From Mobula hypostoma (lineage: Eukaryota), in contig NC_086097.1 of assembly GCF_963921235.1 (NCBI RefSeq), forward strand, positions 117,306,001 through 117,370,000: a stretch of DNA of 64,000 bases, given 5' to 3'. The translations under genes were made by a program, and so were the position numbers. The notes under the pieces were generated by a model. The model was not told the origin of the DNA. It searched no databases and worked only from the letters and a program-made list of their open reading frames with translations. Below, one piece after another: positions 6,101 to 58,235 of this stretch. Position 1 is the stretch's first letter. Every line of letters begins with the position of its first letter.

Positions 6101-7343
6101 ACATATAGGTTACATTTCAGAGCAGAGCAGAGAAAAACGATCCTCCTAAAAGTTATAATGAAATATTACAAATATTAATATTGGAAGCTGGAAGCAATTA
6201 CAATACTAAATCTAAATATTTTAAATGTTATGTTTTTAGTGATGCCTTTTGTGTCAGCCTGTGAAATACACAATTTCTATTTCACACAGTCACTGCTGAG
6301 TTTAAGTAACAACAGTTAAATAATGAAGTTCCATTTTCTCCAATAATTCCAAACCAAACTTTGAATAAAGCCACACCTCATGGATCTCAAGTAGACCCAT
6401 CAGCAGGTAACTCCATGCTGTCTTTCGGATATAGTATAAAGGAAAGTCCTAATGCAAGTCAGGTGAATAATTTGATAAAGGAAGTTGAAGAATATTATAT
6501 AGTAGTCTAATGATATATACCTTTTAAACAGGCCTTCCACCTAATTAAACAAAATGAAATATACTCCCTTCCACTCCGAATGGTTTTGAAAAAGCTATTT
6601 CAGTACTGTATGATTTCACTTTTTGAGATGCCACTCAGAAATCTGATTTTATCCACAGGTCATTCTGTCTTTCTGACTCCCTCCAGATGTTACAATGTTG
6701 GGTGGTATTTCACTGCTGAGTAATTCAACTCTCTGTTTATAAATATTATTACACCGAATGAAATTATGACAACCATATTTCACCCATTTCTTATTAAATC
6801 TCAATTTCTTATCTACACTTGTACCAAATTATATTTTTTCTTTGCTTTCATTTCATTTATTATAATCCATCAGATGCTATTTGATGCTCCATAGTCATCA
6901 GACACTTATTAATAGTTTTACTCATATAAAGCAGGTACTTTGCTTAATGGAACCATGTTTGTTGACTATAACATATGCTTTGATAATTTTACTAAAGAGT
7001 GTGTAACTAAGAAAGAGTATTCCTGTATACACCCAATAACCACTTTATTAGGCAATTCCTGTACCTAATGAAGTTGCCACTGGGTGGAGGTTTGTGGTAT
7101 TCTGCTGCTGTAGCCCATCCACTTCAAAGTTCAATGTGTTGTATGTTCAAAGATGTTTTTTTGCTCACCATTGTTTGAAAACAAAGTTATTTGTGTTATT
7201 GTTGGCTTCCTGTCAGCTTGAACCAGTCTGGCCATTTGCCTCTGACCTCTTTCATTAACAATGTGCTTTTGCCCACAGAACTGCCACTCACTGTGTGTGT
7301 TTTTTTATTTAGTTTTTCACACCTTTCACTGCAAATTCTAGAG

Positions 7344-7423: not shown

Positions 7424-8425
7424 ATCTAGAGACTGTGTGAAAATCCTAGATCAGCTGTTTATGAGATGCTCAAACCACCACATCTAACACCAACAACACT
7501 GGACAACAAAGATTTTGCTACCTGTATATTTCTGGGTGTATCTTGTGGATTCTGGCCTGCTGTTCATGAAAATCACCATGAAATTTTCTTATCACCCACC
7601 ATTTAAAACATATTAGTTATATTTGTTATTTCAATTATAATTCAAGTCAATTAAAATGTTGCCCACAATGTAAGCTGAAAAGTTTTCTATCCTGTCCAGG
7701 CATGCTTAAGGCAGGGTGGATGCTGCATGGCAGGACAGGGTTTAGAAAGGCTATGAAAGCATCAGGCACACACTGTTCTATGTATTGTGTTTACATGTAT
7801 ATCAGTTTGTGATCACGTTAATGGGCATGCTCCACACATATAGCGTACGCATTATAATAAAGTAATTGCATTTCAGGAGTATTTATGATAGCAAAATGTC
7901 TTGCCAAAGTTCCAACAGCCACTATACTTTCAGTCATATTTGTGGTGAGTATATCCTTAAATCTCAAAGATGGAGCATGACACCTCTTATTAAGAAAGCC
8001 TACGAGCTCTACTTTGGGTGTGAAATTGATGGCCAAGACAAAGCCTCGGCTACTCACATGTGTTGCACAACATGCTCTGTCGATCTGAGACCTTGGCTCA
8101 GGGTACTCGGGAGTCAATGCTGTTTGCTGTCCTGATGATATGGAGAGGGCAGAAGGATCCTGCGATAGACTGCTACTTTTCTGTCTGAACAGTGTGTCTG
8201 TGTAACGCCCTGGTTTACATTTTTACTGTTATGCTGCAGGTATTTCATTTTAGCAGTGCTGTAAGAGCAGCCTGTCCTGCTTTCAGCATGTTTAGATTTG
8301 AGCTGAGATAGGGGGCTTGATTTTCAACTCAGGAATGAGCTGTCAGCCAATCAGGGTAGTGGAATTTGGAGAAGGTTCTGGAGAACGATGGGCTGAAGGT
8401 ATTGATTGGTGGGACCTGGGAGAAA

Positions 8426-11400
8426 TGTCATAATGGGGGGGCATTGGGGGGTGGACCCAAATGCGAGGCACAGACACTGAAGTACAAGGAACAGGACTAG
8501 GTTAGTCAAGAAAGCAAGGGAAGTGAGGAGGAAAGGACGCTGGACATGACACAGGCCCTGGATGAGACAAGGATACAGGGCCTGGGCTAGGACTTGACTA
8601 GGGTAGCGGAACCAGGACATGGAACTTGGAACTAGGAGCCTGGGATTGGACTGCAAGCCAGAGACTGGACAAGGACCCCAAACCTGGGTCTTGACTTGGG
8701 TTCAGACCCCGGATTTAGGCAAAGACATGATGAGGCCTGGGTGCCTTGAGGCAAGGGCATGACAAAGCTTGAGTGCCTCGAGGTGAGGACACGACTAAGC
8801 TTGGGTGCCTCAGGGCGAGGGTACTTCGAGGCTTGGGTATGGACTCCGAGCCAGAGACTGGGCAAGGACTCAGAACCTGGGACTTGACTCGGGCTCGGAC
8901 TCCAGAACTAGGTGAGGACAAGACATGGCTACAGGACGAGGAGAGGCAACAGGACTGGATGTGAGACTCCAGGACAGGACAAAGGAACCCCAGCACAAGA
9001 TGAGGGAACCCCAGCATCGAGCTGGGTAAGGTACTCCTGGGCTGGGCAAGACACATGGACAAGACGAGAACACAAAGCCATGGCTTGGACAGGACAACGT
9101 TCTTGGATCATGGCTAGGACTGGACGAGACCCCGAAGCCTTGACTAGGTCGAGGGAGAGACAGGAATGCAGAGCCTTGGTCAAGGAAGAGACTAGGAACA
9201 TGGAACACAGAGCTGGGACCCCTCCTTGGAAACAGGACGTAGGGCCGGGACTCATATACAGAACACAGAGACAGTTCTCCACTCAAGGTAGCGTCAAATG
9301 GCTGGACCTACCTAGCGAAGGCGTGGACACAAGACAGATCCCAACACTGGGTAGCGGCTAACGGCCAGACCTACGTAGTCAAGGTGAGGACACAGAGACA
9401 GTTCAAGACAACGATAGACAGTTCTTTATCTTGCTCCGGTGATTGAACTAGACAGCGGTGCAGGCAAGGCAAGGCTTCAGACGAGGCAACAGAAGGAAGG
9501 GGAAGGGAAGGGATTCAGACAGGAGGTATGGACAGGAAGAACACAGCAGCCAGAGGCTAAATCATGAAGGTATGTATGAAGCCAACCCAAATGAGAATTA
9601 GATGCCTCAATAGAAACTGGGGAAAACTGGAAAAGCTGGAATAAGGAACCAGGACTGGACTGTGAACCACAATGTAGATTTCATGGACCGGACCATGACA
9701 GTACCCTATGTTCTATGATAGCCTCCTGGCGACACAAAAGGCTTCCCCAGACTATGAACAACACGGGCGGGTGGGAATGCATTCAACAGGAGAGAACACA
9801 GGATCGAGAGAGTTAAACGACAGTGTCTGTGTCGCTGGGTCCAAGTCAGGCTGGACTGTTCTGTCATAATGGGGGGCGTTGGGGGGTGGACCCAAATGCG
9901 AGGCACAGACATTGAAGTACAAGGAACAGGACTAGGTTAGTCAAGAAAGCAAGGGAAGTGGGGAAGAAAGGACGCTGGACATGACACAGGCCCTGGACGA
10001 GACAAGGATACAGAGCCTGGGCTAGGACTTGACTAGAATAGTGGAACCAGGACATGGGACTTGGAAGTAGGAACCTGGACTTAGACTCCGAGCCAGAGAA
10101 TGGACAAGGACCCAAAACCCGTGTCTTGACTCGGGCTCGGACCCCAGAACTTGGCGAAGGCATGATGAGGCTTGAGTGCCTCAGGGCGAGGGTACTTCGA
10201 GGCTTGGGTATGGACCCCGAGCCAGAGACTGAGCAAGGACCCAGAACCTGGGACTTGACTCGAGCTCAGACTCCAGAACTAGGCGAGGACAAGACGTGGC
10301 TACAAGACGAGGAGAGGCAACAGGACTGGACATGAGACTCCTGGACAGGACAAAGGAACCCCAGCACTGGGCTGAACAAGGTGCTCCTGGACTGGGTGAG
10401 ACACATGGACAGGACAAGAACACAAAGCCATGGCTTGGACAGGACAAGGTTCTTGGATCATGGCTAGGACTGGACGAGACCCTGAAGCCTTGACTAGGTC
10501 GAGGAAGAGACAGGAATGCAGAACCTTGGTCAAGGAAGAGACAGGAACATGGAACACAGAGCCAGGACCCCTCCTTGGAAACAGGACGTAGGGCTGGGAC
10601 TCATACACAGAACACAGAGACAGTTCTCCACTCAAGGTAGCGGCAAACGGCCGGACATAACTAGCGAAGGTGTGGAATAAAATGGTTCCCTACACTAGGT
10701 AGCGGCAAATGGCTGGACCTACCTTGCAAAAGCGTGAACACAAGACAGATCCCAACACTAGGTAGTGGTAAATGGCCAGACCTACCTAGTGAAGGCATGG
10801 ACACAGAGACAGTTCAAAACAACAATAGACAGTTCCTTATCTTGCTCCGGCGATTGAACTAGACAGTGGTGCAGGCGAGGTTTACAGGCGAGGCAATGAA
10901 ACAGAAGGAAGGGGAAGGGAAGGGATTTGGACAGGAACACTCCAGCATCCAGATGCTGAATCCTGAAGGTATTTATGAAGCCAGCCCAAACGAGAATTAG
11001 CTGCCTCAACAGAAACTGGGAAAAAAACAGAAAACCTGGAATAAGGAACATGGACCAGACCGTGAACCGGAATGCGGATTTCTTGGACCGGACCATGATA
11101 GTATACCCTGCTCTATGGAGGCCTCCTGGCGACCCAAAAGGCTTCCCCAGACTATGGACAACATGGGCGGCTGGGGGGTGGTGCATTCAACAGGAGAGAA
11201 CCCAGGAAAGTGATAGTTAAGTGACAGTGTCTGTGTCACTGGGTCGAAGTCTGGCTGGACTGTTCTGTCATAATGGGGGGCGTTGGGGGGTGGACCCAAA
11301 TGCGAGGCACAGACATTGAAGTACAAGGACCAGGACTAGGTGTGTCAAGAAAGCAAGGGAAGTGGGGAAGAAAGGACGCTGGACATGACACAGGCCCTGG

Positions 11401-12569
11401 ACGAGACAAGGATACAGAGCCTGGGCTAGGGCTTGACTCGGATAGCAGAACCAGGACACGGAACTTGGAAGTAGGAGCCTGGGCTTGGACTCTGAGCCAG
11501 AGACTGGACAAGGACCCGCAACCTGGGTCTTGACTCAGGCTCGGACCCCGGATCTAGGCGAAGACATGACAAGGTTTGGGTGCCTCGTGGCAAGGACATG
11601 ACAAAGCTTGGGTGCCTCAAAGCGAGGACACGACAGGGCTTGGGTGCCTCAAAGCGAGGACACGACTGGGCTTGGGTGCCTCAAAGCGAGGGTACTTCGA
11701 GGCTTAGGTAGGACTCCGTGCCAGAGACTGAGCAAGGACCCAGAACCTGAGACTTGACTTGGGCTCGGACTCCAGAACTAGGCGAGGACAAGATGTGGCT
11801 ACAGGACGAGGAGGGGCAACAGGAGTAGATGTGAGACTCCTGGACAGGACAAGGGAACCCCAGCACCAGGCTGGGCAAGGTACGCTGGGCTGGGCGAGAC
11901 ATATGGACAAGACGAGAACACAAAGCCATGGCTTGGATAGGACAAGGTTCTTGGATCATAGCTAGGACTGGATGAGACCCCGAAGCCTTGACTAGGTTGA
12001 CTGAGAGACAGGAACGTACAGCCTTGGTCAAGGGAGAGACAGGAACATGGAACACAGAGCTGGGATGCCTCCTTGGAAACAGGACATAGGACAGGTCTCA
12101 TATACAGAACACAGAGACAGTTCTCCACTCAAGGTAGCGGCAAACAGCCAGATCTACCTCGCAAAGGCGTGGACACAAGACAGATCCCAACACTGGCTAG
12201 CGGCAAACAGCCAGACCTACGTAGTGATGGCATAGACACAGAGACAGTTCAAAACAATGATAGACAGTTCCTTATCTTGCACCAGCGATTGAACTAGACA
12301 GCAGTGCAGGTGAGGGTTACAGGCGAGGCAAGGCTGCAGACGAGGCAAGGTGACAGAAGGAAGAGGAGGGAAAGGGAAGGGATTCAAACGGGAGATATGG
12401 ACAGGAACAGTCCAGCAGCCAGAGGCTGAATCATGAAGGTATTTATGAAGCCAGACCAAATGAGAATCAGGTGCCTCAACGGAAACTGGGGAAAACCAGA
12501 AAAGCTGGAATAAGGAAAATGGACCGGACCATGAACCAGAATGCGGATTTCACGGACAGGACCATGACA
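8426..12569 (-). mobile_element. Non-coding triple-LTR retroelement (LTR-spacer-LTR-spacer-LTR), Tf1/sushi-like
   Basis: Three homologous TGTCAT...ATGA(C/T)A units (8426-9700, 9862-11100, 11266-12569) and two homologous spacers (9701-9861, 11101-11265). 5-bp flanks AGAAA / AGAAG. The host LTR text resumes after 12574. Confidence 0.9.
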
Positions 12570-13147
12570 AGAAGAATGGGAAAAGATGGCTGAGGATGCC
12601 ATCTCTGTTGCACAAGATGATTTGTTCAAATAAATGGCTTCAAGAAGTGAGACTCCATACTCCCGTAGGAGACCTGTATGTTCGAGATGGATTTCAAGTG
12701 ACATTTGGAAGGTGGTGTGTGCTTTCATGCAGACAGAGGGTCCAGCACATGAGTGACAGTCAAGTTCAAGATGAGCTCCAATTTAAGTGCACATTTGAAT
12801 CTTAGATTAATTGGCCCTTTTGTGTTTTTACTTTCTTTCTTTACATCACTGTTTGCTTGAACTAACATTCTTAACTATACTTCTTTATAATTGTATGCAG
12901 TTTACAATCTGTTATTTCTTACCATGGGCAGTAACTCACACAGCATTCACCCAAACCGGGGTTTGGGTGGGTGAGACATCTCAGCTTCATGGGTTTGGTA
13001 GGACTAAAGCTGTATACACCTTCAATGTATACTAGATGTACAAAGCCAAAGAAAAGCGGGTTTATTGCCACGGAATCCAGTGGCTGTTAGGCAAGAGGCT
13101 AACAAGCCTGTTTTTCAGAGATGCCCAGTATAAGGGGATTTCATTTG

Positions 13148-13165
13148 TGGGGGCTTATCCGGGAT
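13148..13165 (+). promoter_or_regulatory. tRNA-Pro primer binding site
   Basis: TGGGGGCTTATCCGGGAT, 16/18 match to the canonical tRNA-Pro PBS TGGGGGCTCGTCCGGGAT, 4 nt after the 5' LTR's terminal CA. Confidence 0.88.
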
Positions 13166-13267: not shown

Positions 13268-15050
13268 GTGGACACTGCAGAGATTGAGTGTTGGTGTGAT
13301 TCAGAAAGATTACTTGTAGCTAATGCTTGTATTTTGAGCTGAGCGGATATCTGCACCTCAGATGAATTGTTGCCTAGGATTTTAAGTACTGTTACAGCAT
13401 TAGAAAAAGTTATGATCATGGAACGCCAGTTTTGCAAAATGGCAGGCAAAAACTTTGCTTTAGTTCAGACTAGCACTAACATAAGGGCAGTAGATCTGTC
13501 TTGTATCATTGGAGCACCCGGAGACAGAGGGCCATGGACCATCCGTACTTTCAGAGAAGGGGGGAAGTGTAGGTGAGGGTGCTGAGTTGAATGTCAAGTT
13601 TCCCGTAGTTGACGATGGTGGAAAAATATGAGACTTGGGCTGGGCAAACCTCTTAGTTACTGGATGATTGGCAGTGCTCAGATAATATGAAAAAAACAAA
13701 GACTGGCAGAGAGCTTAAAGGGGCCGGCAGCTGATATAGTGAGATTCGTCAAGGCATAAAATCCATTTGCCATGTCAACTAATTATCTGCAAGTTCTGGA
13801 AGATGCATTTGGCACTGCTGGAAGTGCAGCCGAACTTAGGATGAAGTTTGGGAACACATTCCTGGAGGAAGGAGGGAAGCTGTCTGCCTACGTTTCCATG
13901 TTGGAGAAGCTGCTGCACTGTTTGTGCCACAAAGGGGGAAATTCAACTGTCTGAGAGAAACTGCTTGTGGGTGGAGCAAGTTGTGAAGGGCACACTGTCA
14001 CATGAGATGGTTGCTCTATGTATTTGAATGACCCACAAGATGTGCCCTCCTCCACCTTTTACTGACTTACTCAGAGAAGTTAGAGAGGAGGAACACGTGA
14101 TGGAGGAGCAGGAGGCCTCCGTTAGCATGATACAGTCTTTGGTAGTGGCCTCTGTTGCTTAAGTTACCCCTGATGTTCCACAAGGGTTGGGTTTGTGGCA
14201 GATTTGAGAGCTGAGGTATCTTGGTTAATATCGGCAGGTGCTGTCACCAAGCATACCAAAGCCGATAGGGAACCAGGCCACTGATGGGACATACTAAGGG
14301 GAGGGCCGCTGCTGAACGGGTCCCTTCAGCAGAGAAGTGACTCATATTTTCTGTTACAACTGTGGAGAAGATGGTCATTTCAAGCAGGAGTGTGAAGGAC
14401 AGGGAAATCTTCGGAAAGTAAATCAACAGTAAATCAAACAGAGAAAAGGTAAAACTACAGAGGGACCCAGTAAAGGAATGGCCTGACGTTTTGGAGAGGA
14501 TACGCCCCTACCAGTGTATCAAGAGAAATACTAAAGTACAAAACACTTTACCTGGAGGTTTAGTGGGATGAAGCTCTGATGTACCTATATGGATTGAAGG
14601 TGTTTATGCTAGAGCCATATTTGACACAAGTTCTCAAGTTACATTGCTTTATGGATCCTTTTATAACTGGTATTTGATGCATTTACCATTGACGCCACTC
14701 AGTGCTCTTGAGATTTGGGGGCTTAGTACTAGTGAGTACATATACAATGGCTACTTGTTGTTGAAACTGGAGTTTTCAGAAGCAGATGTTGGAGTAACTA
14801 AGACTATTGACACAGCAGTGTTAGTTTGACCGGATCCAGTTGAAAAGGGTGGAGCTTCCATTCTTGTGGGAACAAATACTGTCGTTGTGAGAAGGCTTCT
14901 GGGAGCATGCAAGGAGAGGAGTGGAGAGAACATTTTGAACATCCTGCCCATTCACCCTCTGTTCAGAGCTGCTTCTCAGAAGAGGCAAGTTTCTCTTATG
15001 CAATACAATGAACAGAAACAAGGAACCATGTGTTACACCCAGTCTACTCC
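13268..15050 (+). pseudogene. Disabled PNMA-like gag, CCHC zinc knuckle and aspartic protease of the Gypsy element
   Basis: RLAESLKGPAADIVRFVKA, YLQVLEDAFGTAGS..KLSAYVSMLEKLL (PNMA-like capsid); CYNCGEDGHFKQEC at 14352-14393; VPIWIEGVYARAIFDTSSQV at 14581-14640. Many stops and frameshifts. Confidence 0.82.
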
Positions 15051-15712
15051 TCTCATGTAAGGTCCTGGAGTAGTAGCTAGAGTGACAGGAACCCCAGAAT
15101 TTGTCGGAGTATCCGAGAAATGGAGAAGAAGTTTAACTGAGAAGACGTTGGTATGCGAAGATACGGTTTCTACTGACGAGGCTAAAGTTGATTACCCCGG
15201 GAGTACTTGCCACACTATTTGTGCGGCCGAGGGCACTCCTTTCCGAAAGAGGTCTTGAAGGTTAGCACCAAGGCGGGTGAGGATGTTTGACCGCACCGTG
15301 TTAAGCTGATGGAAGTTAAATTTGGTTGTGGAGCAGAGGTGCCTGAGCTGCTGGAAGACATGAGTGGTGGACAGAGAGAGGCACCCTCCTGTAGACAGGA
15401 GGATCACAAGGAGTGGTTGAAGCTGGGGGAGCTGAAGATGGGATAAGGAGGTCTCAAAGAATTAGGAAGCCCCAGATAGGCTGGCCTATTACATACCGGG
15501 GTAACTGAGTGCTGTGTCTATCCCCCTAGTGAGATATGTCATGACCATTCACAAATGGATTGGAGGCTCTGACGTCACAAAATTCCGATGAAAACTGCTC
15601 ATTGGTGATCGGTTGATAAGGTTCAAAGGCATGAGGGCATGACTATTTTTGGTGGGGGGTGAGAGTGTAATGCTCTGGTTAAGATTTTTACTGCCTTGCT
15701 CTAGGAATTTCA

Positions 15713-16404
15713 TTAGATTAGATTAGTTTTTTTTAAGATTATGAGGACACTCAGTCCTCGTTTACTGTCATTTAGAAATGCATGCGTTAAGAAATGATAC
15801 AATGTTCCTCCAGAGTGATATCACAAAAAAAAACAGGACAAACCAAAGACTAACACTGACAAGACCACATAATTATAACATATAGTTACAGCAGTGCAAA
15901 GCAATACCATAATTTGATAAAGAGCAGAGCATGGGAACGGTAAAAAAAACCCTCAAAGTTCCGATCAACTCCCGATAGTCCTGATAGCAGGCGGCAAAAG
16001 GGAGAAACTCTCCCTGCCATAGACTTCCTGGCACCGACAACTGCCAATGCATTGGAAGTACCGACTACAGCCAACTCTGAGTCCATCCGAAAACTTCGAG
16101 CCTCCGACCAGCCCTCCGACACCGAGCACCGAGCACCACATCTGCCGAACGCTTCAACTCCGCCCCGGCCGCCGAGCAACAAGCAAAGCTGAGGACTCGG
16201 GGCCTTCTCCTCCAGAGATTCTGGACCACACAGTAGCAGTGGCAGCGAAGAAGGCATTTCGGAAGTTTCTCCAGATGTTCCCCCATACTCTCACGTCTGT
16301 CTCCATCAAATCAGGATTGTGCACAGCACCCTACTTGACAGATTACAGATATCATTCACACGAGTGGCTGCTGCGCGCTGCGTCACACCGCCATCTTCTC
16401 CTCC
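15713..16404 (-). mobile_element. ~690-bp non-coding retroposon, copy 1, inserted in the Gypsy 3' LTR
   Basis: Homologous to 31602-32276. Minus strand starts GGAGGAGAAGATGGCG and ends in a (TAATC)n/A-rich tail. Confidence 0.75.
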
Positions 16405-16860
16405 TTATAGCAGTCTGTTCGGCTTTCAGCCTGTTGGGTTAGAGCTAAGATAAGAGGCTTGTTATGCAATTTAGGAATAAGCTGTCAGCCAATTAGGAGA
16501 GTGGAATTGGCAGAAGGTTCTGGAGAACACTGGGTTGAAGGTCCTTGTTGGTGGGAGCTGGGAGAAGACAGGAGGGAAGATGGCTGAGGATGCCGTCCCT
16601 GTTGCACAAGGTGCTTTGTGCAGATGAATGGCTTCAAGGAGGAAGAACCAATACTCCCATGGGGGAGCCTGTTTGTTCAAGATAGATTTCAAGTGACATT
16701 TGGAAGGTGGTGTGAGCTTTCATGAAGACCAAGGGTCCAGCGTGTGAGTGACAGACAAGTTCAAGATGAGCTCCAACTTAAGTGCACATTTGACTTTTTA
16801 AGAGTAAAGGGCCCTTTATGTTTTTTTTTTCCTCACTTTCTTTCTTTTAATAGCTGTTTG

Positions 16861-17532
16861 AACCATAGAACCATAGAACCATAGAACTTAAACAGCACGG
16901 AAACAGGTCTTTTGGCCCTTCTTGGCTGTGCCGAACCATTTTTCTGCCTAGTCCCACTGACCTGCACCTGGACCATATCCCTCCATACACCTCTCAGCTA
17001 TGCACCTGTCCAAGCTTTTCTTAAGAGTTAAAAGTGAGCCCACATTTACCACTTCATCTGGCAGTTCATTCCACACTCCCACCACTCTCTCTGTGAAGAA
17101 GCCTCCCCCCACATGTTCCCTTTAAACTTTTCCCCCTTCTCCCTTAACCCACGTCCTCTGTTTTTTTTTCTCCCCAAGCCTCAGTGGAAAAAGCCTGCTT
17201 GCATTCACTCTATCTATACCCATCATAATTTCATATACCTCTATCAAATTTCCCCTCATTCTCCTACGCTCCAGGGAATAAAGTCCTAACCTATTCAACC
17301 TTTCTCTGTAACTCACTTTCTCAAGTCCCCGCAACATCCTTGTAAACCTTCTCTGCACTCTTTCAACCTTATTAATATCCTTCCTGTAATTTGGTGACCA
17401 AAACTGCACACAATACTCCAAATTCAGCCTTATACAACTTCACCATAACATTCCAACTCTTATACTCAATACTTCGATTTATAAAGGCCAATGTACCAAA
17501 AGCTCTCTTTGCAGCCCTACCTACCTGTGACA
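16861..17532 (-). mobile_element. CR1 LINE 3' fragment in the Gypsy 3' LTR
   Basis: EYCVQFWSPNYRKDINKVERVQRRFTRM; (AACCATAG)n tail at 16861-16886. Confidence 0.9.
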
Positions 17533-17845
17533 TTTAATGTTTTAGGCATCCGTTAGTCTCATGACACCATGGATTTGTGCCTTGGAAGGTTTACAGGGCG
17601 CAGGCCTGGGCAAAGTTGTATGGAAGACCAGCAGTTACCCATGCTGCAAGTCTCCCCTCTCCACACCACCGATGTTGTCCAAGGGAAGGGCATTAGGACC
17701 CATACAGCTTGGCACTGGTGTCGTCGCAGAACAGTGTGTGGTTAAGTGCCTTGCTCAAGGACACACACGCTGCATCAGCCAAGGCTCGAACTAGTGACCT
17801 TCAAATCAATAGATGAACACATTAATCACTTGGCCACGCGCCAAC
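17533..17845 (-). mobile_element. tRNA-derived SINE with CORE-like segment
   Basis: Minus strand: A box TGGCCAAGTGA, B box AGTTCGAGCC, then GTGTCCTTGAGCAAGGCACTTAACC. Confidence 0.7.
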
Positions 17846-19229
17846 GTGCTAATTTGCTTAAATTAACATTCTTATACACTTCTTTCTAATTGTATGCCAT
17901 GTACGATCTGTTATTCCTTGCCAGGGGCAGTAACTCACACAGCATTCACACAAACTGGGGTTTGGTTGGGCGGGACGTCTCAACCTCACAGATTTGACAG
18001 GACCAAAGTTGTCCACACCCTAGATGTACAAAGCCGGAGAAAGGTGGGTTCATATCCGCAGGATCCAGTGCCTGTTAGTGAGGGGCTAACGAGCAGGCTT
18101 TCCAGAGGTGCCCGGTAAAAGGATGTTTCATTTTGTTCCTCTGCTAAAAACAAGAAATCCATTGAATACCCCAATCTCTTCTCAGCCGTGAGACCTGTGC
18201 CGCATGATGATAGTGTTCCAGGACCGAAACCACCAGAGACATGGAGTCTGGATGAGGCGAACGAAGATAAAGGAGCCATGACGCTCGAGCCAGGAATAGA
18301 AAATGCCACTGACAGTGACACAGATTTTGAACCTTTTATGTCTGATTACTCAATCTGAGTTAAATGACCTCGTCAGAGACTTGGGCTTGTCAAAGGCAAA
18401 AGCAGAATTACTGGGTTGAAGACTGCAAGGATGGATTCTGCTGTCACCAGGCACAACAAGTTCCTAGAAGGATTTCAATATTTGAGACAAATGTTCCCCA
18501 GAATAACTGATGCTAAGATTAAGGAAGACATTTTTGTTGGTCCGCAGCTCAAAGATGTCATCAGCGACAAGCATACAAAACAATGAAGTGCAATGTGTCA
18601 CTGAAAATTAATTTTCTGCATTCCCACTTAGACTTCTACCCTGCAAATCTTGGCGTTGTAAAAGGTTTCACCAGGACAATGGGGTCATGGAGAAACAGTG
18701 TCAGGGCAACTTGAATCATCAATGCTGGCTGAATATTGTTGGAAACTGAGTACAAATGAAAATCATCAACAAAACATTTTTAGTTTAGTTGAACTTTTCC
18801 AACGCTTCAGCACCATTATGCAATTCAACCCATTATATTCAATAAAAGTTAATGTCTTGATTCTCCAAATTTTAATGTGATACAAGCAGTCTGAAATTAT
18901 ACTTGTGTTCAGCTTCAAGTGATCTATCATAACTGCAAAAACAGTCCAGTGGAAACAACACGTTTGAAAAAAAATTGCTATCCAGTGCCAAGGTCAAAGT
19001 CACTTAGATCTTATTTCTTCCCTAGTTTGATGTTTGATGTGAACAACAACTAGACCTCTTGACTATATCAGCATACTTCTATGCATTGAATTGCTGTTAT
19101 ATGACTGGCTGATTTGATATTTGCATTAACAGGAGGTGTACATGTGTACTCAATAAGGTGGCCACTGTGTGTATGGTGCATTTTGACAAAAGTACTGAGT
19201 AATTATCTTATCAATGGGACCCGGAGTGA

Positions 19230-22200
19230 TACAGCAGTGCAAGAAGTACATGGAGTAAAGCCAGATCTAACATATAAAGAGGATTTGAGGAAAGAGAAGC
19301 AGAATAAAGGGTGTAAAGGTAGCAAGGTAGAAGGGCTAAAGTGCATGTACTTCAATGCAAGCAGCATCAGGAACAAAGGTGATGAACTGAGAGCTTGGAT
19401 ACATACATGGAATTATGATGTACTGGCCATTACAGAGACTTGGCTGGCACCAGGGCAGGAATGGATTCTCAATATTCCTGTTTTTTTCTCTATAATAAAA
19501 TTACTGTATTTCAATGTTACGAATTAATTAATCTGTATGAATATAGGGTAAGTAGTCTTTATATGTGACTTAGTATAATGTATTGATTTTTTTTCTTGTA
19601 CTCTGTATTCTTATATGTAAAATTAATAATAGAAGTATTGGAAAGAAAAAAATATTCCTGGATTTCAGTGCTTTAAAAGGGATGGCGGGGGGAAGGGGAG
19701 GAGTGGTGGCATTACTGGTCAGGGATACTGTTACAGCTACAGAAAGGGTGGGTAATGTAGCAATATCCTCTTTTGAGTCAGTATGGATGGAAGTCAGGAA
19801 CAGGAAGGGAGCAGTTACTCTATTGGGAGTATTCTATAGGCCCCCTGGTAGCAGCAGAGTTAGCGAGGAGAAGATTGGGAGGCAGATTTTGGAAAGGTGT
19901 AAAAATAACAGGGATGTTATCATGGGTGACTTCAACTTCCCTAATATTGATTGGCACCTGATTAGTTCCAATGGTTTAGAAGGGGCAGAGTTTGTAAAGT
20001 GTGTCCAGGACAGATTCCTGTTACAGTATGTTGACAGGCCGACTAGGGGAAATGCCATACTAGATCTAGTATTAGGTAACGAACCAGCTCAGGTCACAGA
20101 TCTCTCACTGGGTGAGCATCTGGGGGACAGTGACCACTGCTCCCTGGCCTTTAGCATTATCATGGAAAATGATAGAGTCAGAGAGGACAGGAAAACTTTT
20201 AATTGGGGAAGGGCAAATTATGAGCTATAAGGCTAAAATTTGCGGGTGTGAATTGGGATGTTTTTTTTGCAGGGAAATGTACTATGGACATGTGGTCGAT
20301 GTTTAGGGATCTCCTGCAGGATGTCAGGGATAAATTTGTCCCGGTGAGGAAGATAAAGAATGGTAGGGTGAAGGAACCATGGGTGACAAGTGAGGTGGAA
20401 AATCTAGTCAGGTGGAAGAAGGCAACATACATGAGGTTTAGGAAGCAAGGATCAGATGGGTCTATTGAGGAATACAGGGTAGCAAGAAAGGAGCTTAAGA
20501 AGGGGCTGAGGAGAGCAAGAAGGGGGCATGAGAAGGCCTTGGTGAGTAGGGTAAAAGAAAACTCCAAAGCATTCTTCAATTATGTAAAGAACAAAATGAA
20601 GACAGGAGTGAAGATAGGACCGATTAGAGATAAAGATGGGAAGATGTGCCTGGAGGCTGTGGAAATGAGTGAGGTCCTCAATGAATACTTCTCTTCGGTA
20701 TTCACCAATGAGAGGGAATTTGATGATGGTGAGGACAATATGAGTGAGGTTGATGTTCTGGAGCATGTTGATATTAAGGGTGAGGAGGTGTTGGAGTTGT
20801 TAAAATACAATAGGATGGGTAAGTCCCCAGGGTCTGACAGAACATTCCCCAGGCTGCTCCATGAGGTGAAGGAAGAGATTGCTGAGCCTCTGGCTAGGAT
20901 CTTTATGTCCTCATTGTCCACGGGAATGGTACCGGAGGATTGAAGAGAGGCGAATGTTGTCCCCTTGTTCAAAAAAGGTAGTAGGGATAGTCCAGGTAAT
21001 TAAAGACCAGTGAGCCTTATGTCTGTGGTGGGAAAGCTGTTGGAAAAGATTCTTAGAGATAGGATCTCTGGGCATTTAGAGAATCATGTTCTGATCAAGG
21101 ACAGTCAGCATGGCTTTGTGAAGGGCAGATCGTGTCTAACAATCCTGATAGAGTTCTTTGAGGAAGTGACCAGGCATATAGATGAGGGTAGTGCAGTGGA
21201 TGTTATCTACATGGATTTTAGTAAGGCATTTGACAAGGTTCCACACGGTAGTCAAAATGCATGGGATCCAGGGAAGTTTGGCCAGGTAGATTCAGAATTG
21301 TCTTGCCTGCAGAAAGCAAAGGGTCGTGGTGAAGGGACTATATTCGGATTGGAGGATTGTGACTCGGTGTCCCACAAGGATCGGTTCTGGGACCTCTACT
21401 TTTCGTGATTTTTATTAACGACCTGGATGTGGGGGTAGAAAGGTGGGTTGGCAAGTTTGAAGATGACACAAAGGTTGACAGTGTTGTGGATAGTGTAGAG
21501 GATTGTCGAAGATTGCAGAGAGACATTAATAGGATGCAGAAGTGGGCTGAGAAGAGGCAGATAGAGTTCAACCCGGAGAAGTGTGAAGTGGTACACTTTG
21601 GAAGGACAAACTCCAAGGCAGAGTACTTGGTAGTGTGGAGGAGCAGAGGTATCTGGGGGTACATGTCCACAGATCCCTGAAAGTTGCCTCACAGGTAGAT
21701 AAGGTAGTTAATAAAGCTTATGGGGTGTTAGCTTTCATAAGTCGAGGGATAGAGTCGCGAGGTAATGATGCATCTCTATAAACCTCTGGTTAGGCCACAC
21801 TTGGAGTACAGTGTCCAGTTCTGGTCACTTCACTATAGGAAGGATGTGGAAGGATTGGAAAGGGTACAGAGGAGATTTACCAGGATGCTGCCTGGATTAG
21901 AGAGTATGCATTATGATCAGAGATTAAGGGAGCTAGGGCTTTACTCTGGAGAGAAGGAGGATGAGAGGAGACATGATAGAGGTATACAAGATATTAAGAG
22001 AAATAGATAGAGTGGACAGCTAGCGGCTCTTCCCCAGAGCACCACTGCTCAATACAAGAGGACACAGCTTTAATCAGGGATGGGAAGTTCAAGGGGGATA
22101 TTAGAGGAAGGTTTTTCACTCATAGAGTGGTTGGTGCATGGAATGCACTGCCTGAGTCAGTGGTGGAGGCAGATACACTAGTGAAATTTAAGAGACTACT

Positions 22201-26196: not shown

Positions 26197-28200
26197 ACAT
26201 AGAAACATAGAAAACCTACAGCACAATACAGGCCCTTCGGCCCACAAAGTGTGCCGAACATGTCCTTACCTTTGAAATTACCTATGTTACCCATAGCCCT
26301 CTATTTTTCTAAGCTCCATGTATCCATCCACGAGTCTCTTAAAAGATCCTATCATTTCCGCCTCCACTACCACCACCGGCAGCCCATTCCATGCACTCAC
26401 CACTCTCTGCATAAAAGACTTACCCCTGACATCTCCTCTGTACCTACTTTCAACCACCTTAAAACTATGCCCTCTCGTGCTAGCCATTTCAGCCCTGGGA
26501 AGAAGCCTCTGACTATCCACATGATCAATGCCTTTCATTATCTCGTACACCTCTGTCAGGTCACCTCTCATCCTCCGTCGCTCCAAGGAGAAAAGACCAA
26601 GTTCACTCAACCTATTCTCGTAAGGCATCCTCCCCAATCCAGGCAACATCCTTGACTTATGCAGCCAAGAAAACCTGAGTGTTTAATATGCATATTAAAT
26701 ACGCATATAAAATGAGAGTCATTTGAGTCACAGAATTATAGAGCACCACAACATATAAACAGGACTTTCAGCCCATCGACTCTATGCTAAAATGTTATTC
26801 TGCCTTGTCCCATTGACTCACACCTGGAACATTGCCCTTCATACCTCTCCCATTCAAGTCCTTACCCCAATTTCTCTTAACTGTTGCAATTGAACCCATG
26901 TTCAACACATCCCCAGGAGTTTGTTCCGCAGTCACACCACCCTCTGAGTGAAGGTCTTCCTCCTTGGGTTCCCCTAAATATCTCACATTTCACCCTTAAC
27001 ATATGACAGAATGCTGGAGGAACTTAGCAGCCCAGGTTGCACCTTTGGAAAAGAGCACAGTCGACATTTCGGGCCGAGCCCCTTCATCAGGAAGGGCCTG
27101 ATGAAGGGTCTTGACCTTAAATTTCAACTGTACTCTTTTCCATAGATGCTGCCTGGCCTGCTGAGTTCCTCCAGCATTCTGTGTGTGCTGCTTGGATTTC
27201 CAGCATTTGTAGAAATTTTCTTGTCTATGACCTCTGGTTCTAGTTTTACTCAAACTCCGTGAAAAAAAAAGGACTGCTGCATTTACCCTGCTAACATCAT
27301 TCAGACTTTTGCATACCACCTTCAAAGCTCCCCTGAATCCCTGAACTCCAGGAAAAAAGTCCTAACCTATTCAACCTTTCCCTACAACTCAGGTCCTCAA
27401 GTCCCAGCAAAGTCCTTGTAAATTTTCTCTGCAGACATCTTTCCTGTTGGCAGGTGGCAAGAACTGCATACAACACTCTAAATTTGGCCCCATTGACGTC
27501 ATATCCAACTTCAACATAACATCCCAACTTTTGTGCTTAGTACTTTGATTTATGAAGGCCAAAATGCCAAAAGTCCTTTTTACAACCCTATCTACCTATG
27601 AGACCACTTTCAAAGAATTAGGGGTCTGTGGTCCCAGGTTCCTCTCTTTGATTGCACTTATCAGTACTTTCCCATTCACTGCGTAAGTCATACCCTGCTT
27701 TGCTCGCCGAAGTCAAACACATCGCATTGCCTGCATTAAATTCCATCTGCCATTTTTCAGCTGGTGCAGATCCTGCTTTACTCCAAATTTTGGTGCCATC
27801 CACAAACTTGTTGATCCAGTTTACCACATTATCGTCAAAATTATTATGATAGGCAACAAACAACAATGGACCCATGACTAATCCCTGACGCTCATTATTC
27901 ACAGGCCTCCAGAAAGAGAAGCATTCATCTACTACTCGCTGACTTCTCCTGCTAAGCCAATATTGAATCCAATTTATTACTTCATCCTGAATGCTAAGTG
28001 ACTGAACATTCTGGACCAGCCTCCCATGTGGGACTTTGTTAGAGGGCTTGCTAAGGTCCTTGTGGACAATGTCTGCTTCCTTTCCTTCATCAAATTTCCT
28101 GGTAGGCTCATCAAAAAACTTTACAAGGTTGGTTGGTTATGACCAACCATGCACAAAGACATGTTGACTATCCATAATCTGGCCCGGTCTATCCAAATAG
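26197..28200 (-). mobile_element. Two CR1 3' fragments (26197-26655 and ~26720-28200)
   Basis: (AACATAGA)n tail; LGLFSLERRRMRGDL; RT remnants (GPLLF, KFVDGTK, WQMEFNA). Confidence 0.85.
27008..27225. mobile_element. Palindromic pair of Penelope-like termini, each with a hammerhead core
   Basis: Arms ~27006-27091 and 27097-27183 around a 5-nt loop (cttcatcagg aaggg cctgatgaag); flanked by TATGAC at 27002-27007 and 27226-27231 inside a CR1 fragment. Confidence 0.8.
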
Positions 28201-31010
28201 GCAAGGGTAAAATGACCCTGATAGCAGTTATATACAAGCCTCCAAACAGTAGCTGGAATGTGGATTACAATAGGAAAGAGAAAAGGCAGGTCAAGAGGCC
28301 AATGTTATGATTGTCATGGGAGATTTTAACGTGCAGGTAGATTGGGAAAATTAGGTTGGTAATGGATCTCAAGAGAGTGAATTTGTTGGATGCCTATGAA
28401 ATGGCTTTTTAAAACAGTTTGTCATTGAGTCTACTAGGGGATCAGGTATACTGAATGGGGTGTTATGTAATGCATCAGAGACAATTAGGGAGCTTAAGGT
28501 AAAGGAACCATTAGGAGACAGTGATCACAATATGATTGAGCTCAACTTGAAATTTGATAGAGAGAAAGTAAAATCTGATATAGCAGTATTACGGTGGAGT
28601 AAGGGAAATTACAGTGGTATGAGAGAGGAGTTGGCCAAAGTAAATTGGAAAGAGATTCTAGCAGGGATGACAGCAGAGCAAAAATGGCGTGAGCTTCTGG
28701 GAAAAACTGAGGAAGGTATAGGATAGATGTATTTCAAAAACAAAGAAATACTCAAATGGCAAAATAGTACAACCATGGCTGACAAGGGAAGTCAAAGCTA
28801 TTGTAACAGCAAAACAGAGTGCATACAACAAAGCAAAAATTAGTGGGAAGATAGAGGATTGGGAAGCTTTTAAAAAGCTACAGAAAACAACAAAAAATTG
28901 TTAGCAGGGAAAATATGAAATATGAAAGCAAGCTAGCAAATAATATCAAAGTGGACAGTAAAAGCTTTTTCAAATATGTAAAAAATAAAAGAGATGATAA
29001 AAGTGGATAAAGGATTGCTGGAGATGAAAATGAAGCTGGAGAAATATTAACAGGGGGACAAGGAGATGGCAAATGAATTAAATGAGTATTTTACATCAGT
29101 TTTCACTTTGGAAGACAGGAGCAGTTTGCCAGTTGTTGAAGGGTGTGAGAGAAGACAAGTGAGTGCAGTTTCTATCACAAGGGAGAATGTGTTCAAAAAG
29201 CTAAAAGACATAAAGGTACATAAGTCACCCAGACCAGATGAACTGCACCCTAGGGTTCTGAATGAGGTAGCAGTAGAGATTGAGAAGGTATTAGAAATGA
29301 TCTTTCAAAAATCATTGGACTCTGGCATGGTGCCAGAGGACTGGAAAATTGCAAATGTCACCTCCACTCTTTAGGAAAAGAGGGAGGTATCATAAAGGAA
29401 ATTATAGACCAGTTTGTCTGACCTCACTGGTTGGGAAGATGTTGCAGTCAATTGTTAAGGATGAGGTTATGGAGCACTTGGTGACACAGAACAAGATAGC
29501 ACAAAGTCAGCATGGTTTCTTGAAGGGAAAATCTTGCCCAATGAACCTGTTGGAATTCTTTGAGGAGATTACAAGTAGGATAAAGGGGATGGAGTGGATG
29601 TTGTATATTTGGATTTTCAGAAAGCCTTTGACAAGGTGCCACAACATAAGGTTGATTACCAAATTAAAAATCCATAGTATTACAGGAAAGTTACTGGCAT
29701 GCTTATAGCATTGACTGACAGGCAGCATTCAGTAGGTGAAAATAAAAGGGTCCTTTTCTGGTCTGCCAGTGACCAGTGGTGTTACACAGGGGTTGATGCT
29801 GGGACCACTTCTTCTTATGTTGTATATAAATGATTTAGACGATGGAATCGATAGCTTTCTTGCCAGGTTTGCAGATGATACGAAGATTGGTGGAGAGGCA
29901 GGTAGTGTTGAGGAAACAGGTAGGCTGCAGAAGGACTTAGACAGATTAGGAGAATGGGTAAGAAAGTGGAAAATGAAGTACAATGTTGGAAAATGCATGG
30001 TCATGCACTTTGGTAGAAGAAATAAATGAGCAGACTATTTTCTAAACTGGGAAAAAAATACAAAAACCTGAAATGCAAAGGGAAGTGTGAGTCCTTGAAC
30101 AAAATACCCTGAAGGTTAACTTGCAGGTTGAGTCAGTGGTGACAAAGGCAAATGCCATGTTACCATTCATTTAAAGTGGTCTAGAATACAAGAGTAGGGA
30201 TCTGATGCTGAGGCTTTAGAAGGCACTGATGAGGCCTCACCTTGAGTATTGTGAACAGTTTTTGGCTCCTTATCTGAGAAAGAAATGTGCTGGCCTTGGA
30301 GAGGGTTCAGAGGAGGATCACAAGGATGATTCCAGGAATGAAAAGATTATCAAATGAGTAACGTTTGATGGCTATGGGCCTGTACTCACTGGAACTTAGA
30401 ACGATGAGGAGGGATCTCATTGAAACCTTTCGTATATTGAAAGTCCAAGACAGAGAAGATGTGAAAAGGATAATTCCCATGGTGGGGGAGTTTAGGACAA
30501 GAGGGCACAGCCGCAGGAGTGGTGTCTATTTAAAACAGAGATGAGGAGAAATTACTTTTGCCAGAGTTGACCAGGGTCAGGAATGCCTCAAATCAATTCT
30601 TTAGTGAGATGTCAGTACCATTGATTATCAGTAGGAAGTGAGTTCAGATACTTACTGTAGGTACCAAGTTAAAAGGACAGGACCTCCGTGTAGTGATATC
30701 AAGAATGCTAGCTCTGCCATGTGCTGGTGAGGCCAGAAATAGGAAGATAATACAATTTAACACACGGCTAAGGAGATAGTGCAGGAGTGATCAGTTTAGA
30801 AGATTGGATAATTATGCTCTCTTCCAGGGAAAATGGGACCTGTACAAATGGGATGGTTTGCACCAGAACAGGAGGGAGGTCAGTATCCTTGCTGGAAGAC
30901 ATGCTGGTGCTGCGCTGGGAGGGGTGGGTTTAAACCAGAGCTGCAGGGGGGTGTGAACCAAAGTGCCAGGGCAGCTAGTGAAGTGGTTGTGGGTAAAGAT
31001 GTTGTTAAGA
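28201..31010 (+). mobile_element. Degraded CR1 ORF2 (28201-~30570) followed by a CR1 ORF1 esterase fragment (~30570-31010)
   Basis: GDSDHNMI, PEDWKIANV, QHGFLKGKSC, RFADDTK; then sequence resembling 57685-58120. Confidence 0.8.
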
Positions 31011-32276: not shown

Positions 32277-32377
32277 TCCTATATTATACGATGTGATAAA
32301 ATGAAATGTCTTAAATAGTTTGTGTAAAATTAAAAATTATTTCCAATTAAATTTGATATTGTTGCTCTTCTAATATA

Positions 32378-32927
32378 CACTCAATGGTCACTTTATTGGG
32401 CATCTCTTGTACCTAATAAAATGGCCACTGTGTGTATGTTCATCTGCTGCTGTAGCCCATGCACTTCAAAGTTTGACATGCTGTGCATTCAGAGATGTTC
32501 TTCTGCACAGTACTGTTGGAAAGCATGATTATGTGAGTTACTGTCACCTTGAACCAGTCTGGTCATTCTCCTCTGACCCCCTCATGAACAAAGCATTTTC
32601 ACCCACAGAACTGCCACTCACTCAATGTTTTTGTGTTCATCATACAGTTCTTTGTAAACCCTGGAGTCTGCTGTGCATAAAAATCCCAGGACATGAGTAG
32701 TTTCTGAGATATTCAAACCACCCACCTGGCAGCAACAATCATAACACAGTCAAAGTCACTTAGGTCACATTTCTTCCCCATTCTGATGTTTGGTCTGAAC
32801 AACAACTGAACCTCTTGACCATGTCAGCATGCTTTTATGCGTGGAGCTGCTACCACATAATTGGCTGATTAGATATTTGCATTATGAACAGCTGTACAGT
32901 TGTACCTAATAAAGTGGCCACTGATTG
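32378..32927 (-). mobile_element. Tc1-derived non-autonomous element, copy B
   Basis: TA|CACTCAATGGTCACTTTATT start, aataaagtggccactga end; transposase N-terminal remnant on the minus strand. Confidence 0.85.
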
Positions 32928-33504
32928 TCAATACATTGTAATAAGCAAGTGATATGAAGGGTAGATGAAGAATAGATGTTGTCCTTGCTGCAGTAGCAGG
33001 AATCAAGGGTTGAGTTATCAAAGTAAGGGGCTATTGGTGAGATATGTGCAAAAATTCCTTCACCTAGATGTAATTGAATCTGAATTTTTTCCCCTAAAGT
33101 CACTAAATACATTCAAGGAAGAATTTAATAAATTTTTAGCTTAAAGGTGTACAGGAAAGTAACATTGATAGAAAAGTCAGCCATGTACGGCAGAGAAGGC
33201 ACATGGAGCCAAGCAGTCAATTCTCGCTTCTCTTTCTTAAACTGTTACACTCACGCAACAGGGATAACTCCTTGTGATTTACCCAGATAATGCTGGTTAT
33301 GAATCTACACAATGGATTCCTATTCCTGTCAGGAACTAATCTAAATCTGGTTTTGGTTTTCCTCTCTCAGAAAAGAGTCCAACCAGCTCTCAAATCATTC
33401 AGCAAATTCTGGGTTAAGTAATACAAGGCATGCTGCCAGGAAATTTCTCTTTTCCGCATCATCACCTGATCCATTGATTGAATGCTGTATTTTGTAAGTG
33501 ATCT

Positions 33505-33827: not shown

Positions 33828-34518
33828 TGCAACACACATCAAAGTTGCTGGTGAACGCAGCAGGCCAGGCAGCACCTCTAAGAAGAGGTACAGTCGAGGT
33901 TTCGGGCCGAGACCCTTCATCAGGACTAACTGAAGGAAGAGCTAGTAAGAGATTTGAAAGTGGGAGGGGGACGGGGAGATCCAAAATGATAGGAGAAGAC
34001 AGGAGGGGGAGGGATGGAGCCTAGAGCCGGACAGTTGATTGGCAAAAGGGATGTGAGAGGATCATGGGACAGGAGGCCTAGGGAGAAAGAAACGGGGGGT
34101 GGGGGGAAACGCAGAGGATGGGCGAGGGATATAGAAGGAGGGACAGAGGGAGAAAAAGGAAAGAGAGAGAAAGAATGTGTGTATATAAATAAATAACGGA
34201 TGGGGTACGAGGGGGAGGTGGAGCATTAGCAGAAGTTAGAGAAGTCAGTGTTCATGCCATCAGGTTGGAGGCTACCCAGACGGAATATAAGGTGCTGTTC
34301 CTCCAACCTGAGTGTGGCTTCATCTTTACAGTAGAGGAGGCCGTGGATAGACATGTCAGAATGGGAATGGGATGTGGAATTAAAATGTGTGGCCATTGGG
34401 AGATCCTGCTTTCTCTGGCGGACAGAGCGTAGATGTTCAGCAAAACGATCGCCCAGTCTGCGTCAGGTCTTGCCAATATATAGAAGGCCACATCGGGAGC
34501 ACCGGACGCAGTATATGG
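33828..34518 (-). mobile_element. Penelope-like element 3' portion: GIY-YIG endonuclease and terminus with a hammerhead core
   Basis: Minus frame IYCVRCSRCGLLYIGKT*RRLGDRFAEHLRSV...HFNSTSH...RLEEQHLIFRLGSLQPDGMN, a GIY-YIG/CCHH pattern typical of Penelope-like elements. Confidence 0.88.
33892..33927 (-). ncRNA. Minimal type I hammerhead ribozyme motif (one core mismatch)
   Basis: Minus strand AGTC-CTGATGA-AGGGTCTCGGCCC-GAAACCTC-GACT: stem I AGTC/GACT, stem II GGG/CCC, core CUGAUGA and GAAA. The expected palindromic ACGT stem III reads ACCT. Confidence 0.7.
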
Positions 34519-34887
34519 CATTAGTGTTAGGGAACCTTGGCAATAGTGATATTGAATCAAGTTGTATCTTCTCTGCAACTAGAGAGAATGCATTCCATTT
34601 GAGAATCTTTCCAAGTGAGGCGTGGTGTTCTTCTGCAAAATATAATGATTACTGCCTGCTGCTATTGATGTTTAATCAGCAGTTTAAATACGGCTCCCAC
34701 AGTTTATAGCAGATGGATTGGTGTTGGCATGATTTGCAATAAGTGAACATTGTTATAAAATCAATGTTCAATTAAATATAAATAATTTAATCATAGTGCC
34801 TCAAGTTGAGAGCAACTATAAACCTGTACAATTTTAAACCAAGAAAACTGAAAATACACAGATATTAATTATTACATAACTGCTCTG

Positions 34888-35205
34888 ATAGTGCAGTAGC
34901 TCATATAACACTTTACAATGCTATCTGTAAGGTATGGGTTGAATTCTGTATGCAGTCTGTAAAGGGTTTGTATGTTCTTCTCATAATCTCATGGATTTCC
35001 TCTGGGTGCTCTAGTTTCCTTCCATATTGTAAAGACATGTGGGTTTGGGTTAGTAAGTTATGAGGGCATGCTCTGTTGGGTGCCCAAGGCGTTGTTATAC
35101 TGAATGGCTATCCCCATTATATCTCGGACTCTGTTAGTCATTACTGCAAACGGCACATTTTACTGTAGGTTTCGATGTACATGTGACGAATAAAGCTAAT
35201 TTTAA
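34888..35205 (+). mobile_element. Degraded tRNA-derived SINE (V-SINE-like)
   Basis: ctgtaaagggtttgtatgttct...ggatttcctctgggtgctctagtttcct core and an aataaagctaat tail shared with 46590-46885. Confidence 0.65.
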
Positions 35206-36767: not shown

Positions 36768-36982
36768 CAATCTATGGCAGACTCATTAACTCCCTGATCC
36801 ACGGACATTATTATTCCCCAGGTATATTCACCCCTCCCAAGTTGATGTCTCGCTTCTCCCTTAATACGGTGATATCTCTCCTTGTTAGGCATTCCTGCTA
36901 CTTGCCTATATACTATCCTACATCTCCTGGGCCATAAGATCCAAAGTATTCTTTGGACATTTATCTTTCACCAACAAATGTA

Positions 36983-58097: not shown

Positions 58098-58235
58098 TTT
58101 GGCAGGGGGATGGGAACTGGAATGATAGAGCGGAGGAAGGGGAAAACAGAAATAAATCTAAGATTGTGAGCAGTAAAGATATCAGGAAAGACAGGCAGGT
58201 GATGGGGCAAACGTGTAGCCATGGGATGAGTTGCA

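Follow-up and report, generated by a model that had tools for sequence, protein, structure and literature searches.

A 64-kb stretch of the Mobula hypostoma genome (64,000 nucleotides of contig NC_086097.1, called the window below) carries at 8426-12569, on the minus strand, a tandem of 3 long terminal repeats (LTRs) of 1275, 1239, and 1304 nt, which alternate with 2 interiors of only 161 and 165 nt. The locus is old and dead, a three-LTR tandem of an element without proteins. We hold with considerable confidence the joint reading that the element is a non-autonomous, self-primed LTR retrotransposon and that its tandem form arose early. Its primer layout makes descent from a Tf1/sushi-type element of the Ty3/Gypsy group, by extreme internal deletion, most likely, and there is about an even chance that the third LTR was added by unequal exchange soon after insertion. 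The proposed sequence of events runs as follows. The RNA would begin about 154 nt into the 5′ LTR, and its first 12 nt would pair with a primer site just beyond that LTR and so prime reverse transcription; the interior would retain little beyond this site and a purine tract, and all proteins would come from an autonomous relative. One copy would have inserted antisense into an older Gypsy element, within the 5′ LTR of the latter, duplicating 5 bp. Early, with the LTRs still near-identical, the 3′ LTR on one chromatid would have exchanged unequally with the 5′ LTR on the other, adding one unit of LTR plus interior, and all copies would afterwards have decayed independently.

Structure and insertion site

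Self-comparison of the window gives, from left to right and all on the minus strand, LTR A (8426-9700, 1275 nt), which is the 3′ LTR; interior 1 (9701-9861, 161 nt); the shared middle LTR B (9862-11100, 1239 nt); interior 2 (11101-11265, 165 nt); and LTR C (11266-12569, 1304 nt), which is the 5′ LTR. These are exactly the lengths and coordinates of the preliminary description of this DNA, which had been made from the letters alone. The whole tandem measures 4144 nt, and the corresponding monomer would measure about 2.7 kb, its two LTRs contributing 1.27 kb each and its interior about 160 nt. Canonical TG/CA ends are found at 5 of the 6 LTR termini, so that the precise boundaries first described hold except in LTR B, where the 5′ TG has become TA (11099-11100 on the plus strand); LTRs A and C have the 6-nt inverted termini TGTCAT. 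Both interiors are non-coding, and the last 14 nt of each, adjoining LTR A and LTR B, respectively, form a degenerate purine-rich tract, broken by pyrimidines, at the position of a polypurine tract. Internal duplication makes up about 24-30% of each LTR (0 in 20 of 20 shuffles), and most of the indels between LTR copies alter the number of internal repeat units of 17-63 nt. Apart from 7 matches of 19-31 nt, the 64-kb window holds no further copy of LTR or interior.

The outer ends of the tandem are flanked by the 5-mers AGAAA (8421-8425, plus strand) and AGAAG (12570-12574, plus strand), which differ by one mismatch, and the internal junctions have no such pair, as had been noted before. The element therefore shows the layout known as L3I2, in which LTRs and interiors alternate, the middle LTR is shared, and a target-site duplication stands at the outer ends only. 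The surroundings supply a control for this insertion, because the tandem lies antisense within a 5′ LTR, that of an older Gypsy element on the plus strand, and splits this LTR in two (8201-13143, in the parts 8201-8425 and 12575-13143). The 3′ LTR of the host (15666-18130, plus strand) is itself broken by other inserts, at about 15730-16405 and about 16861-17850, and it runs through the insertion site at 16563-16567, where it bears the 5-mer once, as AGAAG; the filled site, which has AGAAA to its left and AGAAG to its right, carries 4-5 extra bases relative to this empty site. The purine-rich context leaves the exact length of the duplication less certain than the duplication itself. Since the host 3′ LTR shows the empty site, there was one insertion site, with a duplication of 4-5 bp and no loss of DNA. 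Moreover, the 2 host LTRs differ by a Kimura two-parameter distance (K2P) of 0.198 ± 0.018 over 758 columns, as against 0.10-0.11 for the inserted LTRs, which is the order required by the nesting.

These flanks bear on the notion that 2 neighbouring insertions recombined and lost the DNA between them. That route and its companion, an unequal crossover late in the life of a resident two-LTR element, are both documented sources of three-LTR structures (PMC7215508, PMC6934838), but taken together they are very improbable here: the flanks form one unbroken stretch of the host LTR but for 4-5 extra bases, which leaves no DNA missing between neighbours, and the late crossover fails on the dating given below. 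The preliminary description had the tandem inserted as one unit. The single insertion site stands; the single duplication, however, is expected alike from insertion of a ready-made trimer and from an exchange after insertion.

Orientation and self-priming layout

A self-complementary 12-mer begins at the first base of both interiors on the minus strand, and these 2 candidate primer-binding sites (9850-9861 in interior 1 and 11254-11265 in interior 2, both minus strand) are identical. The complement of the site is perfect in LTR C (12 of 12 nt at 12405-12416, minus strand, LTR position 154), matches in 11 of 12 nt at the same place in LTR B (10935-10946, minus strand), and is decayed in LTR A. 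The 12-mer has 4 matches in the window where 0.27 would be expected, and none of 2000 shuffled LTRs contained a complement of at least 11 nt. This arrangement on the minus strand identifies LTR C as the 5′ LTR. A TATA-like box of putative function, CATAAATA, lies in LTR C at 12440-12447 (minus strand, LTR position 123) and starts 31 nt upstream of the self-primer site, which is the predicted 5′ end of the RNA; the usual distance from TATA box to start is about 31 nt. A second TATA-like box, likewise of putative function, is found in LTR B (10970-10977, minus strand, LTR position 124). In a predicted 1.2-kb RNA, 11 of the 12 primer-site pairs form with a probability of 0.98-0.99; in a slightly longer RNA, the pairing is present in the centroid fold and absent from the minimum-energy fold. 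Both interiors open with GAACAG and not with a tRNA-type TGG, and it is the LTR with which they pair (no search against a tRNA set was made).

The layout is apparently Tf1-type self-priming, with a putative RNA start at LTR position ~154. In Tf1, the RNA's first 11 bases pair with the primer site to prime synthesis (PMC7175516), and self-priming has been described from fungi to vertebrates (PMC4600332, PMC6317226). Because self-priming is predicted for plant TAR copia elements as well (PMC6317226), it leaves the lineage unfixed.

Coding capacity, RNA genes, and partner searches

The absence of coding capacity was stated at the outset and is borne out: none of the 11 element frames tested matches a Pfam family at E ≤ 1, and no protein search detected gag or pol similarity for the element. 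The 2 halves of the interior seem to resemble a decayed gag start and pol end of fish sushi-type elements, a likeness unconfirmed by any of the protein searches. No autonomous partner was detected among 34 and 164 candidates at E ≤ 10, using 2 frames that span LTR and interior, a search of the longer proteins only, and weak evidence. The full-library protein search returned 2 matches. One, to an FG-GAP repeat protein, was set aside as chance. The other is to the predicted isoform X3 of ARHGEF37 from Hypanus sabinus, the N-terminus of which (residues 26-106) is a translation of the 5′ end of the LTR from its first base; this is either an exonised LTR or an error of the gene model. ARAGORN found no tRNA gene in the element, and the single Rfam match within it (E 0.34) lies far under the gathering score. 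A small-RNA type of terminal-repeat retrotransposon in miniature (TRIM) like Cassandra, Helenus, or Ajax was also considered and rejected, as ARAGORN and Rfam found no 5S- or tRNA-derived sequence in the LTRs. Exact-pattern scans of metagenome and viral contigs gave no matches.

Age and origin of the tandem

Over aligned columns, the LTRs are pairwise 89.5-90.4% identical, with K2P distances of 0.104, 0.114, and 0.112 (standard error ~0.01) and indels in every pair, in keeping with the diverged and indel-bearing LTRs first described. Private substitutions number 45, 48, and 51 for A, B, and C in 1002 gap-masked columns, and equality of the three is not rejected (p 0.83). The suggestion that this is no recent duplication thus holds, with 3 LTRs equally diverged by about 10%. 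The duplication was dated with a Poisson model in which the crossover point was left free. The best fit puts the crossover at the age of the insertion, and a crossover younger than 0.8 of that age is rejected (0.85 with the interiors included). For the late crossover in a long-resident element this is decisive, since placing it at 0.7 of the insertion age costs a deviance of 10.4 with the LTRs alone and 15.2 with the interiors. Equal divergence of the LTRs means that the tandem arose at insertion or in the first 15-20% of the age of the element. A read-through origin from an old tandem donor was rejected on similar grounds: it predicts that LTR B is the most diverged, and the middle LTR is not (upper bound of the ratio 1.43). 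Of the 2 origins offered in the preliminary description, a read-through dimer or an old unequal recombination, what survives is an early exchange or a trimer, and the late crossover falls away.

The early exchange, to which we give about an even chance, is slightly favoured because identical 1.27-kb repeats only 161 nt apart would misalign easily. Recombination is easiest while the repeats are identical. It is favoured also because sugar beet tandems that keep the target duplication have been attributed to intra-element recombination (PMC13570524). The main competitor, somewhat less probable yet a serious one, is that the three-LTR form was made during retrotransposition and that a trimer of complementary DNA of about 4.1 kb integrated once. 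Such a trimer could come from RNA that read through a one-LTR circle or through a tandem donor that was still young; a template switch between 2 co-packaged RNAs could also give it. Both routes have been discussed in print (PMC11899658, PMC7215508). The equal divergence of the 3 LTRs is what a one-LTR circle predicts. The absence of a canonical poly(A) signal from all 3 LTRs would permit read-through, though it may equally reflect decay or a non-canonical signal. The slightly greater divergence of the interiors than of the LTRs (p 0.034) is as expected from 2 templates, but a trimer copied from 2 different templates should have a middle LTR that is odd in its upstream region (U3), and in the first 153 columns, which correspond to U3, the private changes number 11, 10, and 7 for A, B, and C.

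Several results weigh against the combination of sushi-type descent and early exchange that we prefer. With respect to descent, none of the searches tied the element to a Gypsy gag or pol by protein similarity, so that the lineage rests on the primer layout, and neither AATAAA nor ATTAAA occurs on the sense strand of any of the 3 LTRs, unlike the Sushi LTR model, which has AATAAA near the 3′ end (PMC3601003). With respect to exchange, duplication within a two-LTR element should leave the middle LTR close to A in its 5′ part and close to C in its 3′ part, with interiors that are of lesser age than the LTRs. The interiors, only 85% alike, have 24 differences in 161 columns (K2P 0.167 ± 0.035) where 10.1% is expected (one-sided p 0.034, uncorrected), that is, they differ more than the LTRs, when an exchange predicts that they differ equally or less. 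LTR B shows no switch from A-like to C-like; a weak signal runs the opposite way (p 0.0045 unmasked), and this becomes p 0.32 after gap masking and 0.033 without CpG sites. Moreover, a stretch of LTR A at about 8880-9375 is poor in private changes (7, versus 23 and 24 in the other 2 copies; scan p 0.013), the more so without CpG sites (3 versus 18 and 21; 0 of 1000 permutations), and the exchange model gives no account of it. Present data do not separate the early exchange from insertion of a trimer.

The pattern at 8880-9375 fits neither of these 2 routes, and it is possible that LTR A underwent a putative conversion by a younger copy of the family. It is also the chief attraction of a more complex history, which we consider improbable, in which a longer array shrank to 3 units or the LTRs were converted by near or distant family copies, the equal divergence being in part an average over mosaics. 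The internal repeats of 17-63 nt, which vary in number among the copies, would suit such a history as well. On the other side, the B-private and C-private changes in this stretch are unclustered (24 runs in 47 sites, p 0.51), so that long conversion tracts from A to B or from A to C are not seen.

Family abundance and contig support

Assembled contigs from 4 of 24 sequencing runs, one for each of 4 related organisms, were compared with a 7.2-kb stretch around the element at a likeness cut-off of 88%. Each run placed 34,000-41,000 contigs on this stretch, other repeats included, and most were 90-95% alike. In run X1, the depth summed within LTR bins was about 6,000-76,000, compared with 13-16 for single-copy contigs, figures that do not amount to a copy number. 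In run X9, 80 contigs part from the window past 11098 and continue in flanks unrelated to it (agreement 0.39), as the end of the LTR would at many other insertion sites. The LTR family is abundant and dispersed, and it is present in all 4 runs.

Whether the three-LTR structure might be an assembly artefact, made by joining 2 haplotypes or paralogous copies, can be judged from the same contigs. No contig among those listed spans the whole element, which is what such an artefact has in its favour. Nonetheless we find it hardly credible, as divergence of 10% in the LTRs and 15% in the interiors would be far above allelic levels, and as X1, possibly the source sample of the assembly itself, has contigs at single-copy depth that agree with the window. 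Among 32 of about 153,000 pieces of that run, a contig of depth 14.4 without a single difference bridges the left junction (8241-8473), LTR A holds further zero-difference contigs of single-copy depth, and others with a depth of 14.8 bear the window letters at 9760, 11214, and 11221, that is, in both interiors. As far as the contigs show, then, the preliminary description was right to discount an artefact.

X5 (organism B) has, at single-copy depth, a piece of LTR C with 4 differences in 137 nt, and the sequence suggests that the insertion may be older than the split from that organism; X5 has no contig cover at 9760 in interior 1, a hole that by itself proves nothing. Differences between contigs and window were read from 40 of 497 rows. 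Of the 13 that lie in the element, one was dropped as an A-only insertion, and in the remainder the alternative letter is the letter of a sister copy at 6 of 7 sites in the LTRs and 4 of 5 in the interiors. This match implies that the copies started from a common family sequence and that each decayed on its own. At each listed site, a run has 0-14 interior-like contigs that carry another letter, counts that are limited by a cut-off (88%) exceeding the 85% likeness between the 2 interiors. In X10 (organism D), contigs resembling the 3′ half of the interior (9760, 11120) reach depths of about 1,900-2,300, compared with tens to hundreds in the other 3 runs; possibly the interior-like sequence underwent a younger expansion in that organism.

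Other features of the window

The host Gypsy element retains a PNMA-like gag fragment (13760-13951, plus strand; PF14893, E 2.8e-8), and its sequence at about 13147-13164 resembles a tRNA-Pro primer site. The nearby gene is cerebellin-2b, with coding exons at 519-809, 1645-1770, and 2578-2778; the first of these is 99% identical to a Hemitrygon akajei protein across the whole query, which marks the source of the DNA as a stingray-like ray, and the tandem lies 5.6 kb beyond the last. Intron 1 of the gene contains an (AC)34 microsatellite (864-931). Farther along, a tandem array at 50927-51309 consists of 11.3 copies of a 34-nt unit with 95% matches. A repeat of about 0.55 kb occurs in 5 copies that are 71-75% alike (7026-7342, 32372-32928, 36977-37534, 52623-53190, and 63374-63915); it is very abundant in all 4 runs and is presumably a small DNA-transposon derivative. 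Decayed copies of long interspersed nuclear elements, with endonuclease- and reverse-transcriptase-like frames, are found on both strands at 19100-22200, 28200-30570, 38680-46200, and 57080-61160, and we presume them to be CR1-like.

Meaning and comparison with known systems

The immediate use of this single dead locus is as a repeat-library entry for an abundant ray LTR family. Its minimal form suggests that ~160 nt between the LTRs are enough for a self-primed element. The origin of tandem LTR arrays has been left open in the plant literature (PMC11899658), and the 2 routes could be separated by counting and phylogeny in existing ray assemblies, given many loci of a family whose LTRs are long and well diverged. 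If trimers integrate whole, this would be a vertebrate case of concatemer retrotransposition. A further-reaching version, which we regard as unlikely, holds that in this ray family, about 94% LTR, self-primed, and with its poly(A) signal lost, read-through RNA yields three-LTR concatemers that integrate as primary products; the tandem would then belong to the life cycle of the element and not be a later accident.

The contrast that the preliminary description drew between this element and known tandem TRIMs was overstated. Sugar beet has non-autonomous families with LTRs of at least 2.1 kb and short interiors, which also form tandems (PMC13570524), and tandem TRIM arrays have been reported in zebrafish (PMC10886601). 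Tandems have been reported also in bivalves and cestodes (PMC6934838), and kangaroo centromeric LTR tandems are cited in PMC11899658. Among the nearest systems are the sugar beet tandems, which are similarly non-coding, with long LTRs, short interiors, and 3 LTRs in 65 of 97 cases, and which keep the target duplication in 73 of 97; theirs is a plant host, and ours is a vertebrate (PMC13570524). In maize, L3I2 is the commonest array of tandem-array TRIMs (63 of 93), and the ray element shares with these the 3 LTRs, 2 interiors, and single target duplication; however, they average 685 bp with LTRs mostly below 250 bp, compared with a ray monomer of ~2.7 kb and LTRs of 1.27 kb (PMC4717578). Tandem LTR retrotransposons of rice and other plants likewise share their internal LTRs and have one insertion site, and the same 2 candidate mechanisms were left undecided there; the search for that set required interiors of 500 bp or more, and most of these have coding domains, whereas the ray interiors are non-coding and of ~160 nt (PMC11899658). 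The zebrafish Helenus element LTR-11_DR is, like ours, a vertebrate non-autonomous LTR element with tandem arrays, but Helenus elements are short (311-1263 bp) and tRNA-primed, with tRNA-like LTR sequence of a kind not found in the ray element (PMC10886601).

In its priming, the ray element resembles Tf1, Tj1, and the vertebrate Tf1/sushi elements, in which the primer site directly follows the 5′ LTR and is complementary to a site within the LTR (PMC7175516, PMC4600332, PMC6317226). The complementarity spans 11 nt in Tf1 and 12 in the ray element, and both lack the tRNA-type TGG start (PMC7175516). Those elements are autonomous, and the ray element is not. The LTRs used to train the Sushi LTR model average 572 nt, about half the length of the ray LTR, and the AATAAA of that set is missing from the latter (PMC3601003).

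Existing terms fit poorly. A strict TRIM measures <1 kb with terminal repeats of 100-250 bp (PMC6934838), which the monomer of ~2.7 kb and LTRs of 1239-1304 nt exceed, and assignment by a tRNA primer site was rejected on the GAACAG start and its pairing with the LTR. For a large retrotransposon derivative (LARD), non-coding and >4 kb (PMC13570524), only the 4144-nt tandem is long enough, and the monomer is not. The element thus works like a tandem TRIM, yet it departs from the strict TRIM in its size and in lacking a tRNA-type primer site, and its monomer falls short of the length of a LARD; sugar beet elements of 1.5-4 kb occur as well, and the authors state that no term exists for that size (PMC13570524). 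We found no description of this family, or of tandem non-autonomous LTR elements in sharks or rays, in a searched literature that lacks most subscription papers and supplements and excludes Repbase and Dfam; a batoid genome preprint, in the part available, gives LTR content only in bulk. Beyond the preliminary description, the analysis finds that the element reads on the minus strand, that its primer site is laid out for self-priming, and that it sits in a host element with an empty site in the second LTR. The architecture itself is already known from the systems compared here, and what the ray adds is a self-priming layout with almost no interior, an empty-site control, and an early date for the tandem.

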